From: Synechococcales cyanobacterium S06
Lineage (GTDB): Bacteria; Cyanobacteriota; Cyanobacteriia; Cyanobacteriales; JAABRE01
NCBI GenBank assembly: GCA_011391125.1
Contig: JAABRE010000014.1
Span: 4,109-68,108, forward strand
Direction of reading: 5' to 3'
Length of the DNA: 64,000 nt
Shown: positions 47,174-53,532 of the stretch, piece by piece
Position numbering within the stretch: position 1 is the first letter of the stretch
How the letters are laid out: each line of letters opens with the position of its first letter
Notes under the pieces: model-generated
Databases searched by the model: none
The model's input: the letters and a program-made list of their open reading frames with translations, nothing else
What the model was told of the DNA's origin: nothing
Program-made: the position numbers and the translations under genes

Positions 47174-48373
47174 GTGAATTTATCAGGAAATAATCTCAAA
47201 ATATCCATAGTCGCTAGTGATTTATCCAGTCAAGGTGCAGGAAGATGGGGGGGAGCAAATCGACCTTTTTTATTAGCTCATGCTTTGAAAAAAATAGGCT
47301 ATTCCGTTGAAATAGTGGGGTTAGCTTTTGATAGTAATTCTCCTACTTTGTATGACCCAGAAATTCCTGTTTCTTCTGTCCCTTGTTCCTATTATTCAGG
47401 TATAATTAGTGCATCTCAACAGTTATTACAACAAATTGATGGTGACATTATTTATGCAGTAAAACTGAAACCAACTAGCTTTGGTTTAGCTATTCTGAAA
47501 AAATTAATCGGTAATAAACCTTTAATTTTAGATATAGATGATTGGGAATTAAGTTGGTATGGAGGGGAGAATTTTCAATATAAACCGAATTTAAAACAGT
47601 TAATTACAGATATTTTACCCAAAGAAGCACCCTTAAGATTTCCAGATCATCCTCTCTATTTATCCTGGTTAGAAAAGTTAACCTCTTACGCCGATCTTAT
47701 CACAACCCATACTCAATTTTTACAACAACGTTTTGGGGGAATTTATATTCCTAATGGTAAGGATACAAACTTATTTAATCCCGAAAATTATGACCCAGAA
47801 GCTAGTAGAATAAAATATGGTTTATCCGATTATAAAGTGTTAATGTTCCCCGGTGCACCGCGTCAATATAAAGGATTAGAAGATGTTTTAACCGCTTTGG
47901 AAATACTAAATCAACCTAAACTAAAATTAGTCATTGTTGGCGGTAGTCCCTATGATGATTATGATCAGAAATTAATGGAAAAATGGGGTAAATGGATTAT
48001 TAAAATCCCTAAATCTCCTGTTAATCTAATGCCAGAAATTGTCGCTGCTGCCCATATAATTGTCGTACCCCAGAAAAATACTCCCGCTACTCAGGCCCAA
48101 TTTCCTTTAAAATTAACGGATGGAATGGCCATGGCCAAACCAATTTTAGCGACCAAAGTTGGTGATATACCTGATATTTTAGGCGATACTGGTTTCTTGG
48201 TTGAACCTGATTCTCCTCAAGAAATTGCCACTACAATTGACTATATTTTTCAGCATTGGGACTTAGCTCAAAATAAAGGATTAGAAGCTAGAGAAAGATG
48301 TCTTAATTACTTTAGTATTGATACCATGGCAGCAATTTTAGAGCCCATTATTAATAATTTATTAAACCAATAA
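47174..48373 (+). CDS. Glycosyltransferase, GT4 family (GT-B fold)
   Basis: 399 aa. C-terminal FPLKLTDGMAMAKPILATKVGDIPDILGDTGFLVEP is an E-x7-E-like region. GTG start. Confidence 0.85.
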   Translation: MNLSGNNLKISIVASDLSSQGAGRWGGANRPFLLAHALKKIGYSVEIVGLAFDSNSPTLYDPEIPVSSVPCSYYSGIISASQQLLQQIDGDIIYAVKLKPTSFGLAILKKLIGNKPLILDIDDWELSWYGGENFQYKPNLKQLITDILPKEAPLRFPDHPLYLSWLEKLTSYADLITTHTQFLQQRFGGIYIPNGKDTNLFNPENYDPEASRIKYGLSDYKVLMFPGAPRQYKGLEDVLTALEILNQPKLKLVIVGGSPYDDYDQKLMEKWGKWIIKIPKSPVNLMPEIVAAAHIIVVPQKNTPATQAQFPLKLTDGMAMAKPILATKVGDIPDILGDTGFLVEPDSPQEIATTIDYIFQHWDLAQNKGLEARERCLNYFSIDTMAAILEPIINNLLNQ

Positions 48374-48374
48374 T

Positions 48375-50450
48375 ATGACCTTTAAAGAACTCACTATACA
48401 ATTTATTAAAGATAATCCAATCTTGATTACTTTAAGTATTATTTTAGGATTTTCCGGCGCAATTTTTAATACCGTGGGTACAGCTTTAATTATTCCTCTT
48501 TTATTAGTCTTTGTCGGTCAATCGCAAATGTTACTTGAAGGTGGTCCACCCATCTTACAAAAAACCATTTCACTTTTTGATACTTTCCCTGAAAATACCA
48601 GATTTTTCGCCATGTTTGGAGCCGTTTTATTCGCAATTATCCTTAAAAATGCCGCTAATTTAGGAAATACCATCATCTCAGGACAACTTTCTCGCAATTT
48701 AGTTAAAAGTCTAAGATTAGAAGGTATTAAAACTATTTTAAATGTAGATATAGATTATCATAATAAAAATAAAAGTGGCGATCTTCATAATCGTTTAAGT
48801 GGCGAAATCAATAAAACTGCTAGTTCAGTTAGAACGGTTATTACTATGATTTCTAATATTATTAATATTTCGGTTTTTGTCTGGTTTTTAGTTACTTTAT
48901 CTTGGCAACTTACTATTATTACAGTTTGTTTATTTGGTTTGATCGCTCTTTCTAATCAGTATTTTGTCAAAAAATCCCGAGAATATGGACATATTCTTGG
49001 GCAAACAGCGAAAGATTATGCTAATACTTTATTTGAAGTCTTAGGTGGGATAAGACTAATTAAAACTGTCAGTTATGAAGAACCAGAATATGAAAAAATG
49101 CGACAGCTAACTTTAACAAGAGAACAGGCCGAATTTGACAGTCAAATTAACTTTAGTATTCTTGGACCTTGGACAGAAATTAGCGGTATTTTTGTAATCT
49201 TTATTATCGTTATAGCTGGTAAATTTATTTATGCTGAAAATATGGCTAGTTTTTCCGCCATTATTTTAACTTACTTGGTTTTATTAAATAGATTAATCCC
49301 TCCTGTTAATGCTTTAAATGGCCAGCGTAATAGTTTAGCTAATGCTGATTTCAGTGTACAAATGACCACAGATTTACTCCGAAAAGACAATAAACCGATC
49401 ATGGAAAATGGTCATGAAATTTATCAAGGTTTACAGGATAAAATTGAATTTAAAAATTTAAGTTTTACTTACCCCGATAATCAAAATCAAGTTTTGAAAC
49501 ATATCGAATTAACTATTAATAAAGGTAAAACCATTGCTTTAGTAGGAGCTTCTGGTGCAGGTAAATCAACCATAGCAGATTTATTACCTAGATTTTATGA
49601 TCCCACAGATGGCAAAATTATCCTAGATGGTAAAGAGTTAAGGGAATATGAGCTAAAATCCTTAAGAAAAGCGATCGGTTTTGTCAGTCAAGATACTTAT
49701 TTATTTAATAATTCCGTCGCTTATAATATTGCTTATGGAATGGAAAATGCCAGCCAAGATGATATTATTATGGCAGCCAAAAGGGCAAATGCCTACGAAT
49801 TTATTATTGATTTACCCCACGGATTTGATACCGAAATTGGCGATCGCGGAGTCTTACTTTCGGGAGGTCAAAGACAAAGAATTGCCATCGCTCGCGCCTT
49901 ATTAAGAAACCCTGATATCTTAATATTAGATGAAGCAACCAGTGCGTTAGATACTGTCTCAGAAAAATTAGTACAACAAGCAATTGAAGAACTTTGTAAA
50001 GATAGAACCAGCTTGGTAATTGCTCACCGATTATCTACCATTGAAAAAGCCGATCAAATTGTGGTTTTAAATAAGGGAGAAATCGTGGAAATGGGTAATC
50101 ACCAAGAATTATTAGCAAAAGATGGTTACTATGCTAAATTATATTCAATGCAATTCACCGACAAGGCAAAATCACAAGAGATCGAATCAGCAAATTTAGA
50201 CAATTTATCGTCACCAATTTTAAGAGAATTCCAGCAAACTTTCCAGAAATTGCCCAATTATATTTCTTTTGAAATTAGGGCTGGACTTAATGCTCTATTA
50301 GGCACTTTAGGATTATTAAATGATGGCTTATTTGATAATACAGAAGAACAGCATGAACTGGTGGAAGAATCCTATGATTCGGCCTTAAATTTACTTAATA
50401 CCATTGAATTTTTTGAGGTAAGAATATCGAATTTAATCTCTAAATATTAG
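48375..50450 (+). CDS. ABC exporter (fused TMD-NBD, MsbA-like) with a ~95-aa C-terminal HisKA-like extension
   Basis: 691 aa. Walker A GASGAGKST, signature LSGGQRQRIAIARA, Walker B ILILDEATSALD. The tail reads ISFEIRAGLNALLGTLGLL. Confidence 0.92.
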   Translation: MTFKELTIQFIKDNPILITLSIILGFSGAIFNTVGTALIIPLLLVFVGQSQMLLEGGPPILQKTISLFDTFPENTRFFAMFGAVLFAIILKNAANLGNTIISGQLSRNLVKSLRLEGIKTILNVDIDYHNKNKSGDLHNRLSGEINKTASSVRTVITMISNIINISVFVWFLVTLSWQLTIITVCLFGLIALSNQYFVKKSREYGHILGQTAKDYANTLFEVLGGIRLIKTVSYEEPEYEKMRQLTLTREQAEFDSQINFSILGPWTEISGIFVIFIIVIAGKFIYAENMASFSAIILTYLVLLNRLIPPVNALNGQRNSLANADFSVQMTTDLLRKDNKPIMENGHEIYQGLQDKIEFKNLSFTYPDNQNQVLKHIELTINKGKTIALVGASGAGKSTIADLLPRFYDPTDGKIILDGKELREYELKSLRKAIGFVSQDTYLFNNSVAYNIAYGMENASQDDIIMAAKRANAYEFIIDLPHGFDTEIGDRGVLLSGGQRQRIAIARALLRNPDILILDEATSALDTVSEKLVQQAIEELCKDRTSLVIAHRLSTIEKADQIVVLNKGEIVEMGNHQELLAKDGYYAKLYSMQFTDKAKSQEIESANLDNLSSPILREFQQTFQKLPNYISFEIRAGLNALLGTLGLLNDGLFDNTEEQHELVEESYDSALNLLNTIEFFEVRISNLISKY

Positions 50451-50571: not shown

Positions 50572-51207
50572 ATGGGACTTATTAAATCTCAACCATTGGA
50601 AGAAGCTATTAAAGTAGCTGGAACAGACGACGAAACCCGCAATCGCATCATTAGAGCCGCCTTACGTTTGTTTTCTCGTCATGGTTACGAAAAAACCACT
50701 ACCAAGGAGTTGGCTGCTGTAGCAAAAGTAGCCGAAGGAACTTTATTTCGACATTTTGAGAACAAAAAAGCAATTTTAATCGAAGTAACCACCTTAGGTT
50801 GGATCGAAATTTTGACGGATTTATTAACGGAATTAAGCGAAATGGGGAGCTATAAAGCGGTAGCTCAAGTAATGCGCAAAAGAATGTTAAAATTAACCGA
50901 AAATGCCGATTTATTTCGAGTTTGCTTTATTGAAGCTCAATTTCACCCCGAATTAAGAGAAAAGATCCAATCAGAAGTGATTGGAAAAATGACAAGTGTT
51001 GCTGAAGCCTTCTTTGAAACCGCCATGGAACGGGGCATATATAGAAAAATCAACCCTAAAATTGTGGCTCAAGTCTTTTTAGGGATGTTTGCGATCGCCG
51101 GATTTTCTGATCAAACAATTATTGATCCCAAAGCCAGTCCCAAACAATTAGAAGAAATGGCCGAAGGTATTGCTGATATTTTTCTTAACGGTGTATTAAA
51201 CAATTAA
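50572..51207 (+). CDS. TetR/AcrR-family transcriptional regulator
   Basis: 211 aa with HTH RIIRAALRLFSRHGYEKTTTKELAAVAKVAEGTLFRHFENKKAIL. Confidence 0.93.
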   Translation: MGLIKSQPLEEAIKVAGTDDETRNRIIRAALRLFSRHGYEKTTTKELAAVAKVAEGTLFRHFENKKAILIEVTTLGWIEILTDLLTELSEMGSYKAVAQVMRKRMLKLTENADLFRVCFIEAQFHPELREKIQSEVIGKMTSVAEAFFETAMERGIYRKINPKIVAQVFLGMFAIAGFSDQTIIDPKASPKQLEEMAEGIADIFLNGVLNN

Positions 51208-51215
51208 TAAGTAAG

Positions 51216-52778
51216 ATGACTAGAGTAAATAAATCCAATTTAAAAAGTAAGAAAAAGAGCAGTAACATCTTAGAGAAAATAATGGTATTTTGGGCGACAG
51301 TTAACCTAACGTTAGTGTTATTTGATCTTAGTTATATACCATGGCGGGATTTTTGGTTACAAGGGAGAATACAACTATTTCTTAAAGTCGGCCAATATGA
51401 ATTAGAATTTCCGGAATATCCTCTAAAAATTTTACCTTTTTCCCTTACAAATTATTATGATTGGGTCAAAGGAATTGAACCCTATCGAGATACAGAAAAT
51501 TATTTAAAAACCGTAGAAAAATTTAACAATCAAATTAATCAAATAGCGATCAAAACCTTAGAAAATGAATCAAAAATAGATAAGGAGCAAGAAAATATAG
51601 AACAAATTTTAGGGGATTTACGTGAGCAAAGTCAAGAAATAATCGCCACAAATCCTTTTCAATCGGCGAATAAAACTGGCACTTTAGAAAAGATAAAAAA
51701 TAAAATGAGAGTGCATATTTTTGGCTCAGAAGAAGCTTCAGCCAAGAAATCTTTTGAGATATTTTGGAGCAAAGAACATTTACTTAAACAAGGAATTAGA
51801 CAGGAATTAATCTTTTTTGACAAAGAAATAAAACCCTTAATTGAAACTAATTATTATCGTCCCCTAGGAGAAAATGGCCAGTTGGTAGATAATTTTGGTA
51901 TCCTCGATTTTTCCTGTTTTACGATTTATTTTCTCGGGGAATTTTTAGGGAGAACATGGTATATTAGCCGTAGTCATAGCGGGGTAACATGGTTAGATGC
52001 CATGTTATGGAGATGGTACGATTTATTTTTCTTTTTACCCGTATTTCGTTGGTTAAGAATTATTCCGGTTACCCTTCGTTTAAATAAAATTGGCTTCCTC
52101 GATTTAAGTGCCATTCAAAAACAAGTAAGTCAGGGTTTTGTCGCTGGAATTGCCGAAGATTTAACCGAAGTAGTGGTGATCAGAATTATTGGTCAAACTC
52201 AAAACTTAATTGCAGAAGGGAAAATAGAGACAGTTTTAGCTAATCAAAATACCACAGAATATATTGATATTAATGAGAAAAATGAAATCAAAGAAATCAC
52301 GAAATTAATCTTAGAATTAATTGTTAATCAAGTAATACCTAAAATTCGCCCCGAAGTAGAAGCATTATTAACTTATAGTATCGAAAAAACCTTAAATCAA
52401 TCAGAAGCCTATCAAAGATTACAACAAATTCCTGGCCTGACCAACTTACAACAAAATTTAACCACACAAATAATTAAACAAATTTATCAAATTACCACCG
52501 AAACTTTACAAGGATTTTTAAAACAAGATCAAGAATTTGACAGTTTACTGGACGAAATAACCCAAAAATTTACGAACACCATGGGAGCAGAATTGAAAGC
52601 TCAAGAAAGTATGGAGCAAATACAAAACCTCTTGATTGATTTTCTGGAAGAAATGAAAATAAATTTCATTCAGAAACTTTCAGACGAGGATGTCGAGGCA
52701 ATTTTGGAGCAAAAAAGAAAACTAAAACATCCAGCAAGTTTAATCACCCCAGTCAAATCCTTAAAAAAGTCAAAATAG
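51216..52778 (+). CDS. Membrane protein with voltage-sensor-like S2-S4 helices and a long C-terminal helical region
   Basis: 520 aa. TM at aa 22-43, then aa 227-291: FTIYFLGEFLGR, WRWYDLFFFLP, FRWLRIIPVTLRLNK. It lies 8 nt after the TetR gene. Confidence 0.6.
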   Translation: MTRVNKSNLKSKKKSSNILEKIMVFWATVNLTLVLFDLSYIPWRDFWLQGRIQLFLKVGQYELEFPEYPLKILPFSLTNYYDWVKGIEPYRDTENYLKTVEKFNNQINQIAIKTLENESKIDKEQENIEQILGDLREQSQEIIATNPFQSANKTGTLEKIKNKMRVHIFGSEEASAKKSFEIFWSKEHLLKQGIRQELIFFDKEIKPLIETNYYRPLGENGQLVDNFGILDFSCFTIYFLGEFLGRTWYISRSHSGVTWLDAMLWRWYDLFFFLPVFRWLRIIPVTLRLNKIGFLDLSAIQKQVSQGFVAGIAEDLTEVVVIRIIGQTQNLIAEGKIETVLANQNTTEYIDINEKNEIKEITKLILELIVNQVIPKIRPEVEALLTYSIEKTLNQSEAYQRLQQIPGLTNLQQNLTTQIIKQIYQITTETLQGFLKQDQEFDSLLDEITQKFTNTMGAELKAQESMEQIQNLLIDFLEEMKINFIQKLSDEDVEAILEQKRKLKHPASLITPVKSLKKSK

Positions 52779-53049
52779 AGCTATAATATTAAAGGATATT
52801 CCCTCGCTACACAAGTGCCTGATTTTAGGTTATATTTGTTAGATAGGTTTTGCGACCCTTGAGAGGTAATGCTGAGTATATTTAGCAAATATGCGTGTAA
52901 CCTCTACTTTGAATCTCTGTTTTTTGTAACAGAGAAGTCTTCGCGAATAAACTTGATTTTCTGAATTAAATTGATTCAGGAAACATTGGCACTGATTTTC
53001 AGATCAGATTAATCTCAAAATTTTGACATTAGTCTGAAACACTATTGTA

Positions 53050-53071
53050 GTGGGTCTGACCCGCTTTTTTT
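53050..53071 (+). promoter_or_regulatory. Attenuator/terminator-like hairpin plus T7 run in the rimP-nusA-infB leader
   Basis: GTGGGT ctg ACCCGC (6-bp stem, 53050-53064) followed by TTTTTTT (53065-53071), 14 nt before the rimP ATG. Confidence 0.45.
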
Positions 53072-53085
53072 GTTGCATTGATTAT

Positions 53086-53532
53086 ATGACTCATCCTTTG
53101 ATCCCACAAATTATTGATCTAGCCACCCCGTTAGCCCATCAACTAGGTTTAGACCTGGTTGACGCAGTATTTCAAACGAATAGAACCCCACCAGTGTTAC
53201 GAATTGACGTTCGTAACCTCGAAAGCGATACGAGTTTAGATGACTGTGAAAAAATGAGTCGAGCATTAGAAGAAAAGCTCGACGATTGTGAGTTAATTCC
53301 AGGTGATTATGTGCTGGAAGTATCAAGTCCTGGAATTTCAAGACAATTAACCACAGATAGAGAATTTATCTCATTTAAAGGTTTTGCGGTACTCGTGACA
53401 ACTTTACCCCCAGAGCCGAAAAAATGGCAAGGAAACCTTCAAGGGCGGGATCAAGAGGCAGTTTATTTGAGTCAAAAAGGCAAAATAATTACGATTCCCC
53501 GAGAGGATATTGCCAAAGTGCAATTAACTTAA
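53086..53532 (+). CDS. rimP: Ribosome maturation factor RimP
   Basis: MTHPLIPQIIDLATPLAHQLGLDLVD ... LEVSSPGISRQL. Start taken at the ATG at 53086. Confidence 0.9.
   Translation: MTHPLIPQIIDLATPLAHQLGLDLVDAVFQTNRTPPVLRIDVRNLESDTSLDDCEKMSRALEEKLDDCELIPGDYVLEVSSPGISRQLTTDREFISFKGFAVLVTTLPPEPKKWQGNLQGRDQEAVYLSQKGKIITIPREDIAKVQLT

Follow-up and report, generated by a model that had tools for sequence, protein, structure and literature searches.

We analyzed a 64,000-nucleotide (nt) window of contig JAABRE010000014.1 from Synechococcales cyanobacterium S06, centering on a complete open reading frame (ORF) on its forward strand (51216-52778, ATG start). This ORF encodes a 520 amino acid (aa) membrane protein with a predicted pore-less core resembling a voltage-sensor domain (VSD), which we assign to the Sll0827 family, named here after its orthologue in Synechocystis sp. 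PCC 6803. The initial annotation had described a TetR-linked protein with S2-S3-S4 elements of a voltage sensor and no pore domain; the ORF is present as described, and the three peptides quoted for these elements lie exactly at aa 227-291 (51894-52088). Profile comparison, residue conservation and co-evolution indicate true, if distant, homology between this membrane core, which has no pore, and the S1-S4 VSD of BacNav and Kv channels.

The protein opens with a Lys/Arg-rich N-terminus (aa 1-21; 51216-51278; seven Lys/Arg, net charge +6), predicted to be cytoplasmic by the positive-inside rule, the established basis for placing a charged N-terminus on that side of the membrane. The S1 helix follows (aa 22-43; 51279-51344), lying within the first hydrophobic segment (aa 18-43 by hydropathy), with the landmarks N30 and D37 (N-x6-D, compare N25 and E32 of NavAb), F36, Y40 and R44; it aligns with NavAb S1 and co-evolves in antiparallel fashion with S2 and S4. 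The S1-S2 loop carries a 183-aa insert domain (aa 44-226; 51345-51893), predicted to be extracytoplasmic and modeled by AlphaFold as a β-hairpin with helices (predicted local distance difference test, pLDDT, 80-90). This insert contains the motifs YDWVKGIEPYRDT, NPFQxANKTGTLExIKN, FWS and NYYRP, and had no detectable relative in Pfam or PDB sequence, Foldseek or profile searches.

The S2 helix (aa 227-253; 51894-51974) bears an outer acid, D231, together with F235 and a charge-transfer motif, F239-x-x-E242-x-x-x-R246. S3 (aa 257-276; 51984-52043) contains W259-x-D261, found in the cyanobacterial clade only, then R266-W267-Y268-D269 and P275 (D-x5-P), and a minimal LPVF turn joins it to S4 (aa 277-292; 52044-52091), with R278, R281, P284, R288 and K291. 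Beyond S4 lie conserved amphipathic helices (aa 298-333; 52107-52214; QGFVAGIAEDxTEVVVIxIINQ), acidic in character and distinct from a transmembrane pore helix, which are a possible coupling element. They lead into a variable helical region of about 200 aa, mapped here as a C-terminal helical domain (aa 346-504; 52251-52727) of low AlphaFold confidence. No segment after aa 325 is hydrophobic enough for a membrane span, and comparing either the C-terminal half or the full-length profile with an S5-P-S6 pore alignment of 107 sequences gave at most 1% hhalign probability, in line with the earlier statement that neither a transmembrane helix nor a selectivity-filter-like sequence follows S4.

Similarity of the membrane core to voltage sensors

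Neither the window protein nor a 121-sequence profile of its family matched Pfam, NCBIfam or PDB sequences. A word-indexed search returned 1,896 relatives, all annotated as hypothetical, the named ones being cyanobacterial (including Synechocystis, Crocosphaera, Rippkaea, Gloeothece, Picosynechococcus, Limnothrix and Xenococcus). An exhaustive HMMER search extended the family to 571 clusters at 50% identity, with identities of 22-96% and the quoted motif residues as its most conserved part. It includes a distant subfamily (22-30% identity) in Acidobacteriota (Thermoanaerobaculia, Holophagae), Leptospiraceae and other Spirochaetota, Myxococcota, Desulfobacterales and Methylomirabilota; a genome scan for this subfamily, made with a 10-sequence alignment, found at least 124 species genomes matching two peptide patterns.

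For profile comparison, voltage sensors were represented by 120 database proteins, all carrying PF00520, that were retrieved with NavAb, NaChBac, KvAP, Hv1 and Kv1.2 as seeds and combined into a VSD profile; the retrieval itself validated the seeds (NavAb match at 99% identity, KvAP recovered). Using the diverse family profile, hhalign aligned S2-S4 alone to the VSD profile with 92.3% probability (P 5.4e-7), the unmodified N-terminal 300 residues with 87.9% (P 3.2e-6), and S1 joined to S2-S4 with 89.8-92.5% (P 5e-7 to 1.8e-6); against BacNav sequences alone the value was 85%. Since a positive control run by the same method, the KvAP VSD against the BacNav VSD, gave 89.2% (P 2.2e-6), the family resembles BacNav sensors roughly as closely as the KvAP sensor does. 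Reversed sequence, the insert and the C-terminal half each gave 0.3% or less, and within-helix shuffles reached at most 23.1 against the observed score of 40.1; one global-mode shuffle scored 127.6 and was treated as an artefact, the local-mode null being the one relied on.

The signal became clear only after the distant members from the exhaustive search were added. A cyanobacteria-only profile gave 5-9% probability, its global alignment being in register (score 19.6, P 9e-4, 9%) and scoring above 100 within-helix shuffles (maximum 13.2) and the 23 other helix orders (13.0 or less), so that the native order ranked first of 24 permutations. When the S2-S4 profile was compared with 177,635 PDB sequences, only NaChBac and a NaChBac chimera were returned, in an alignment that spans S2-S4, is broken by a gap of 17 residues at S3b/S4-N and lacks significance on its own (E 1.9). 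Among 24,736 Pfam models, Ion_trans was the one hit most often by individual distant members (4 of 34, best E 0.31). The proposed voltage-sensor homology of S2-S3-S4 is supported by profile comparison with clean controls, with S1 placed by its landmarks and by co-evolution.

The landmark residues agree with those of NavAb and NaChBac helix by helix. In S1, N30-x6-D37 corresponds to N25-x6-E32 of NavAb, and N-x6-[DN] is kept in 194 of 213 sequences. In S2, D231 (90 of 92 sequences) is the outer acid, which in NavAb/NaChBac stands 10 residues before the inner Glu; the spacing from outer Asp to inner Glu/Asp is likewise 10 in 170 of 189 family sequences and 11 in the clade of the window protein. 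The motif F-x-x-E-x-x-x-R, common to NavAb and NaChBac, is represented by F239 (87/92), E/D242 (87/92) and R246 (77/92). S3 carries W267-Y268-D/E269-x5-P275 (D/E269 in 89/92, P275 in 86/92), compared with W-x-x-D in NavAb/NaChBac, and D269 aligns with D80 of NavAb and with the WNWFD motif of NaChBac. S4 retains R278 (66/92), R281 (91/92) and R288 (86/92), compared with R-x-x-R. Conservation of the F, E, D and R positions had been set beforehand as a test of the voltage-sensor proposal, and the family passes it, F239, E/D242, D/E269 and R281 each being kept in 87 or more of the 92 sequences. The distant subfamily (Acidobacteriota/Leptospiraceae) has an invariant R-x-x-R-x-x-R, in the form R-x-F-R-L-F-R...R-L-x-x-S, a textbook S4.

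In the cyanobacterial clade, S3 has a tandem W-x-D...W-R-W-Y-D arrangement (51990-51998 and 52008-52022; aa 259-261 and 265-269), in which D261 is almost invariant; this residue is absent in other phyla. D261 was considered as the S3 counter-charge on the basis of a cyanobacteria-only alignment and set aside, as distant members conserve D269 but not D261. A pairing of D261 with R288 or K291 is possible.

The AlphaFold model (121-sequence alignment) is fairly confident over aa 20-300 (block pLDDT mostly 65-91) and poor in the C-terminal half. It places helices at 17-49, 227-253, 259-272 and 278-291, with S3 split by DSSP into 259-265 and 267-272; S3 and S4 are short, and the hydropathy of S2-S4 is modest. 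Mean-field direct coupling analysis (DCA; 263 sequences, effective number Meff 136, kinship ignored) gave five couplings above the maximum of 15 column-shuffle nulls, all between helices: A27-V285, M23-E242, F235-F273, L19-E242 and V34-F227. Within the top 40 couplings, one antiparallel register for each helix pair accounts for 8 of 10 S1-S2, 7 of 7 S2-S3 and 4 of 5 S1-S4 couplings, giving 19 of 22 pairs in register against a null mean of 5.7 and a null maximum of 10. D231 is coupled to R281, and E242 to R288. Such a pattern is consistent with four helices packed up and down into a closed bundle, the distant S1 among them. The corresponding topology would have a cytoplasmic N-terminus, S1 crossing outward, the 183-aa domain outside (in the periplasm or thylakoid lumen), S2-S3-S4 returning, and about 230 aa of helical domain in the cytoplasm.

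Family members, cyanoglobules and genomic context

Sll0827 of Synechocystis sp. PCC 6803 (P0391) lies within the 90% cluster of P0106, which has 51% identity to the window protein over 94% coverage (E 7.4e-160). By these alignments, Sll0827 is a full-length orthologue of the window protein with all its domains in common. Sll0827 is an uncharacterised core protein of the cyanoglobule, a lipid droplet; it makes up 5.4% of the mass and ranks seventh in abundance (Susanto et al., Plant Cell 2025, PMC12223511). That study lists it as "Uncharacterized protein, no homolog" and does not describe a fold or mechanism; it notes that transmembrane helices are predicted in nine of the cyanoglobule proteins, with an unclear mode of association, and the droplet proteome it reports is rich in prenyl-lipid enzymes (PMC12223511). 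The droplet enrichment of Sll0827 comes from Synechocystis proteomics only (PMC12223511, Table 1).

The Synechocystis locus has no TetR neighbour. In Synechocystis CACIAM 05 (L001, 5001-10068) the genes after the sll0827 orthologue encode an amidase, a ferrochelatase on the opposite strand and a UbiE-like methyltransferase, the last corresponding to sll0829/rapQ in PCC 6803. Because sll0829, two genes downstream of sll0827, also encodes a core cyanoglobule protein (PMC12223511), a stretch of about 4 kb holds the genes of two droplet proteins.

Several members carry UniRef labels ("Uridine phosphorylase", "GGDEF domain-containing protein", "polyhydroxyalkanoate synthesis regulator protein") that no domain match supports and that look like annotation errors. 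Long variants of 616-655 aa in Lyngbya and Limnospira (P0133, P0137, P0138, P0144, P0154, P0155, P0162 and P0163) match the profile in 2-4 separate stretches and have about 110-130 additional residues in the N-terminal half, which may represent an enlarged or partly duplicated S1-S2 insert. In the post-S4/C-terminal region, matches to DUF445 (PF04286) recur in cyanobacterial and non-cyanobacterial members (window aa 346-504, P0240, P0256 and L007:5001-6353), all of them under the gathering score (E 0.0024 to 1.2). This hints that the region shares an uncharacterised helical module with DUF445, a family of predicted membrane proteins of no known function. A relationship to MotA/TolQ/ExbB, raised in PMC6768053, was rejected: no PF01618 match was listed for the 79 members scanned, and none of these proteins appeared among the PDB matches of the S2-S4 profile.

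Upstream of the Sll0827-family gene, a TetR-family regulator (50572-51207, forward strand; PF00440, E 2.3e-16) ends in a stop codon that is separated from the ATG by 8 nt (taagtaag). The regulator described at this position is confirmed; TetR linkage as a property of the family does not hold up, since the gene is found upstream only in the window and in its closest relative (L004, 67% identity), and is absent in L001 (Synechocystis), L002, L003, L005 and L006, which include Picosynechococcus, a Coleofasciculaceae metagenome-assembled genome and two further relatives. We regard it as a lineage-specific neighbour. Further upstream (47174-50450) lie a 399-aa glycosyltransferase and, one base after its stop, a 691-aa MsbA-like ABC exporter with an extra C-terminal tail of about 100 aa past the ATPase domain. 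Because the order glycosyltransferase, ABC exporter, TetR and Sll0827-family gene recurs in L004, TetR more plausibly regulates the exporter module.

Downstream, rimP-nusA-(ylxR)-infB follows in 5 of 8 cyanobacterial loci, the window counted, which we read as conserved gene order. A terminator-like hairpin with a T-run (53049-53075, forward strand) separates the Sll0827-family gene from rimP and is the probable 3' end of the transcription unit. The mechanically called rimP ORF starts at a GTG at 53050, inside this hairpin; the true start is probably an ATG near 53086 (MTHPLIPQ...). Other neighbours vary among seven cyanobacterial loci, and no conserved partner gene was found in 79 distant-subfamily loci, where no neighbour cluster occurs in more than 8, the focal gene and an antisense artefact aside.

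Proposed mechanism and competing interpretations

We tentatively favor, at less than even confidence, a pore-less bacterial VSD homologue with a working charge-transfer system coupled to a cytoplasmic domain. Such a system is suggested because the buried charges stay under strong selection across phyla. D37 and D231 would form the outer charges, F239 the hydrophobic plug, and E242 and D269 the inner charges, with R278, R281 and R288 on S4. S4 would move by roughly one charge step when the membrane potential, or a local proton gradient, changes; given the short S3-S4 hairpin, the movement would be limited to a small switch, not the large stroke of a channel. S4 movement would be passed through the post-S4 amphipathic helix to the cytoplasmic helical domain, which in Synechocystis would be located at cyanoglobules attached to thylakoids. 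Voltage sensing by the protein is a hypothesis drawn from sequence.

A number of observations weigh against this mechanism or the homology beneath it. The elements of the voltage-sensor signature are present as first described; their spacing is not fully so, as D269 lies only 9 residues before the first S4 arginine (11 in the distant subfamily), compared with 19-20 in the BacNav channels NavAb and NaChBac. Where the S4 of a voltage sensor would have a basic residue at each third position, three or more in all, that of the window protein has only two i/i+3 arginines (R278 and R281); P284 and L287 occupy the next two positions, and R288 and K291 are out of register with the first pair. Since the alignments set R278 and R281 opposite R3 and R4 of NavAb/NaChBac, the R1/R2 paddle is missing, and two arginines with a 9-residue spacing may leave too little room for S4 travel. 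The short hairpin was considered as incompatible with a VSD altogether, a position softened by the longer S3/S4 of the distant subfamily and by the co-evolution results.

On the side of the searches, no Pfam model reaches threshold for the family (Ion_trans, cited above, being the best), and S1 alone is not significant against the VSD profile (P 0.055). The coupling analysis has low depth, its register windows were picked after inspection of the data, and it gave no S3-S4 signal in the 263 sequences. Foldseek of the AlphaFold model, poor in its C-terminal half, against PDB had been proposed as a structural check; it returned generic helical matches only (best E 2.4) and so lends no support to a VSD fold, although with a 183-residue insert splitting the domain we consider the missing match uninformative rather than negative. 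Droplet proteins usually use hairpins or amphipathic helices. Enrichment of Sll0827 in droplets relative to the membrane pellet (PMC12223511) is in this respect odd for a polytopic bilayer protein.

The main competing interpretation, nearly as likely as the favored one, is a static module derived from a VSD: a relic membrane anchor, or a scaffold that binds lipid or prenylquinone, comparable to the non-sensing S1-S4 domain of TRP channels. Its salt bridges would be fixed, and the outer insert and the cytoplasmic helical domain would be the functional parts, for instance in tethering droplets to a membrane. The very short S3-S4 hairpin and the two in-register arginines of the window protein favor it, as do the conservation of the insert, as strong as that of the VSD helices, and the place of Sll0827 in a droplet proteome where prenyl-lipid enzymes are plentiful; fixed pairs would account equally well for the couplings of D231 with R281 and of E242 with R288. 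Non-sensing S1-S4 domains typically lose the F/E/D/R constellation, whereas here it is kept from cyanobacteria to Acidobacteriota and Leptospiraceae, and the distant subfamily retains three evenly spaced arginines.

The remaining interpretations rank below these two. It is unlikely that there is no VSD at all and that a monotopic or hairpin droplet protein has come to mimic S2-S4 by convergence, with interfacial helices rich in aromatic residues and arginine. The missing Foldseek match, the lack of any above-threshold family model, the short DSSP helices (259-265, 267-272 and 278-291), the modest hydropathy of S2-S4 and the droplet enrichment over the membrane pellet speak for this reading, but convergence has to contend with hhalign probabilities of 88-92%, backed by clean controls and by a positive control of the same kind, with NaChBac as the sole match among the PDB sequences, with landmarks and spacings that agree in all four helices and with co-evolution in keeping with four helices bundled antiparallel. 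Moreover, members are found in phyla beyond cyanobacteria, for which cyanoglobule-type droplets are not known.

Still less probable is an Hv1-like proton path, in which the VSD itself would conduct protons, gated by voltage or ΔpH across the thylakoid or plasma membrane. The pore-less architecture with a C-terminal helical domain, the conserved acidic residue D37 in S1, and the tryptophan between the S4 arginines of the cyanobacterial clade (R278-W279-x-R281) recall Hv1; yet hhalign against human Hv1 gave 0.4%, the signature R-x-W-R-x-x-R is replaced by R278-W-L-R281-I-I-P, W279 is missing in the distant subfamily, D37 aligns with the outer E32 of NavAb and not with the mid-S1 selectivity aspartate, and prokaryotic Hv channels are unreported (PMC10377628). 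A detached sensor subunit gating a separately encoded pore or transporter is very improbable: VSDs are modular, split channels can function (PMC13095418) and an ABC transporter lies upstream in the window, but no neighbour is conserved in the distant loci, neighbours differ among the cyanobacterial ones, and the ABC/TetR context is confined to the close lineage of the window.

Relation to known voltage sensors and significance

The VSD of NavAb and NaChBac (the N-terminal half of PF00520) is the best profile match of the Sll0827 family and its only PDB sequence match, with S1 N-x6-acid, S2 acid-x9-F-x-x-E-x-x-x-R, S3 W-x-x-D, S4 R-x-x-R and, as co-evolution suggests, four antiparallel helices in common. 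Unlike these channels, the family has no S5-P-S6, carries the 183-aa S1-S2 insert and has an S3b/S4 "paddle" that is 10-17 residues shorter; a predicted cytoplasmic helical domain of 230 aa comes after S4, the match lies below the Pfam threshold, and the window protein has two rather than four in-register arginines.

The initial annotation had also compared the protein with Hv1 and the voltage-sensing phosphatases (VSP), a comparison that stands for architecture and fails in detail. In eukaryotic Hv1/VSOP, too, the VSD stands alone, with no pore domain, and leads into a helical C-terminus in the cytoplasm, but we found no specific relationship to it (hhalign as given above), its S4 signature is different, and it is far smaller than the bacterial protein and has no counterpart of the predicted extracytoplasmic insert. 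Similarly, VSP couple a VSD to a non-pore cytoplasmic module, the sensor driving that module as we propose for the present family; they are eukaryotic and carry a PTEN-like phosphatase, whereas aa 293-520 of the window protein have no Pfam or NCBIfam domain match.

Known prokaryotic VSDs are attached to K+, Na+ or Ca2+ pores, and the pore-less Hv1, VSP, TMEM266 and sNHE are eukaryotic (PMC10377628; PMC13095418). A 2023 review concluded from database searches that all prokaryotic VSDs accompany a pore domain and that there are no prokaryotic Hv channels (PMC10377628), and the voltage sensors covered by a 2024 review are channels, sNHE, VSP and Hv1 only (PMC13095418). Our literature search found no description of the Sll0827 family as VSD-like. 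The initial interpretation is partly supported by the comparisons made here, and we regard the family as a bacterial variant of the VSD superfamily that lacks a pore, carries an S1-S2 insert and has a truncated paddle. It is possible, if doubtful, that it represents the first prokaryotic family of stand-alone pore-less voltage sensors, ancient and spread over several phyla, which in cyanobacteria couples energisation of the thylakoid or plasma membrane to cyanoglobule biology.

If this is true, a conserved bacterial family of pore-less VSDs would alter the view that prokaryotic VSDs always carry pores, and the use of VSDs as sensors in their own right would predate the eukaryotic Hv1 and VSP or be independent of them. 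With its compact S3-S4 hairpin and large S1-S2 insert, the family departs from the canonical VSD in unusual ways, and Sll0827 of Synechocystis would offer a small, abundant and genetically tractable model. The proposal also offers an initial hypothesis, on both structure and mechanism, for a protein that ranks among the most abundant uncharacterised ones in the lipid droplets of cyanobacteria.

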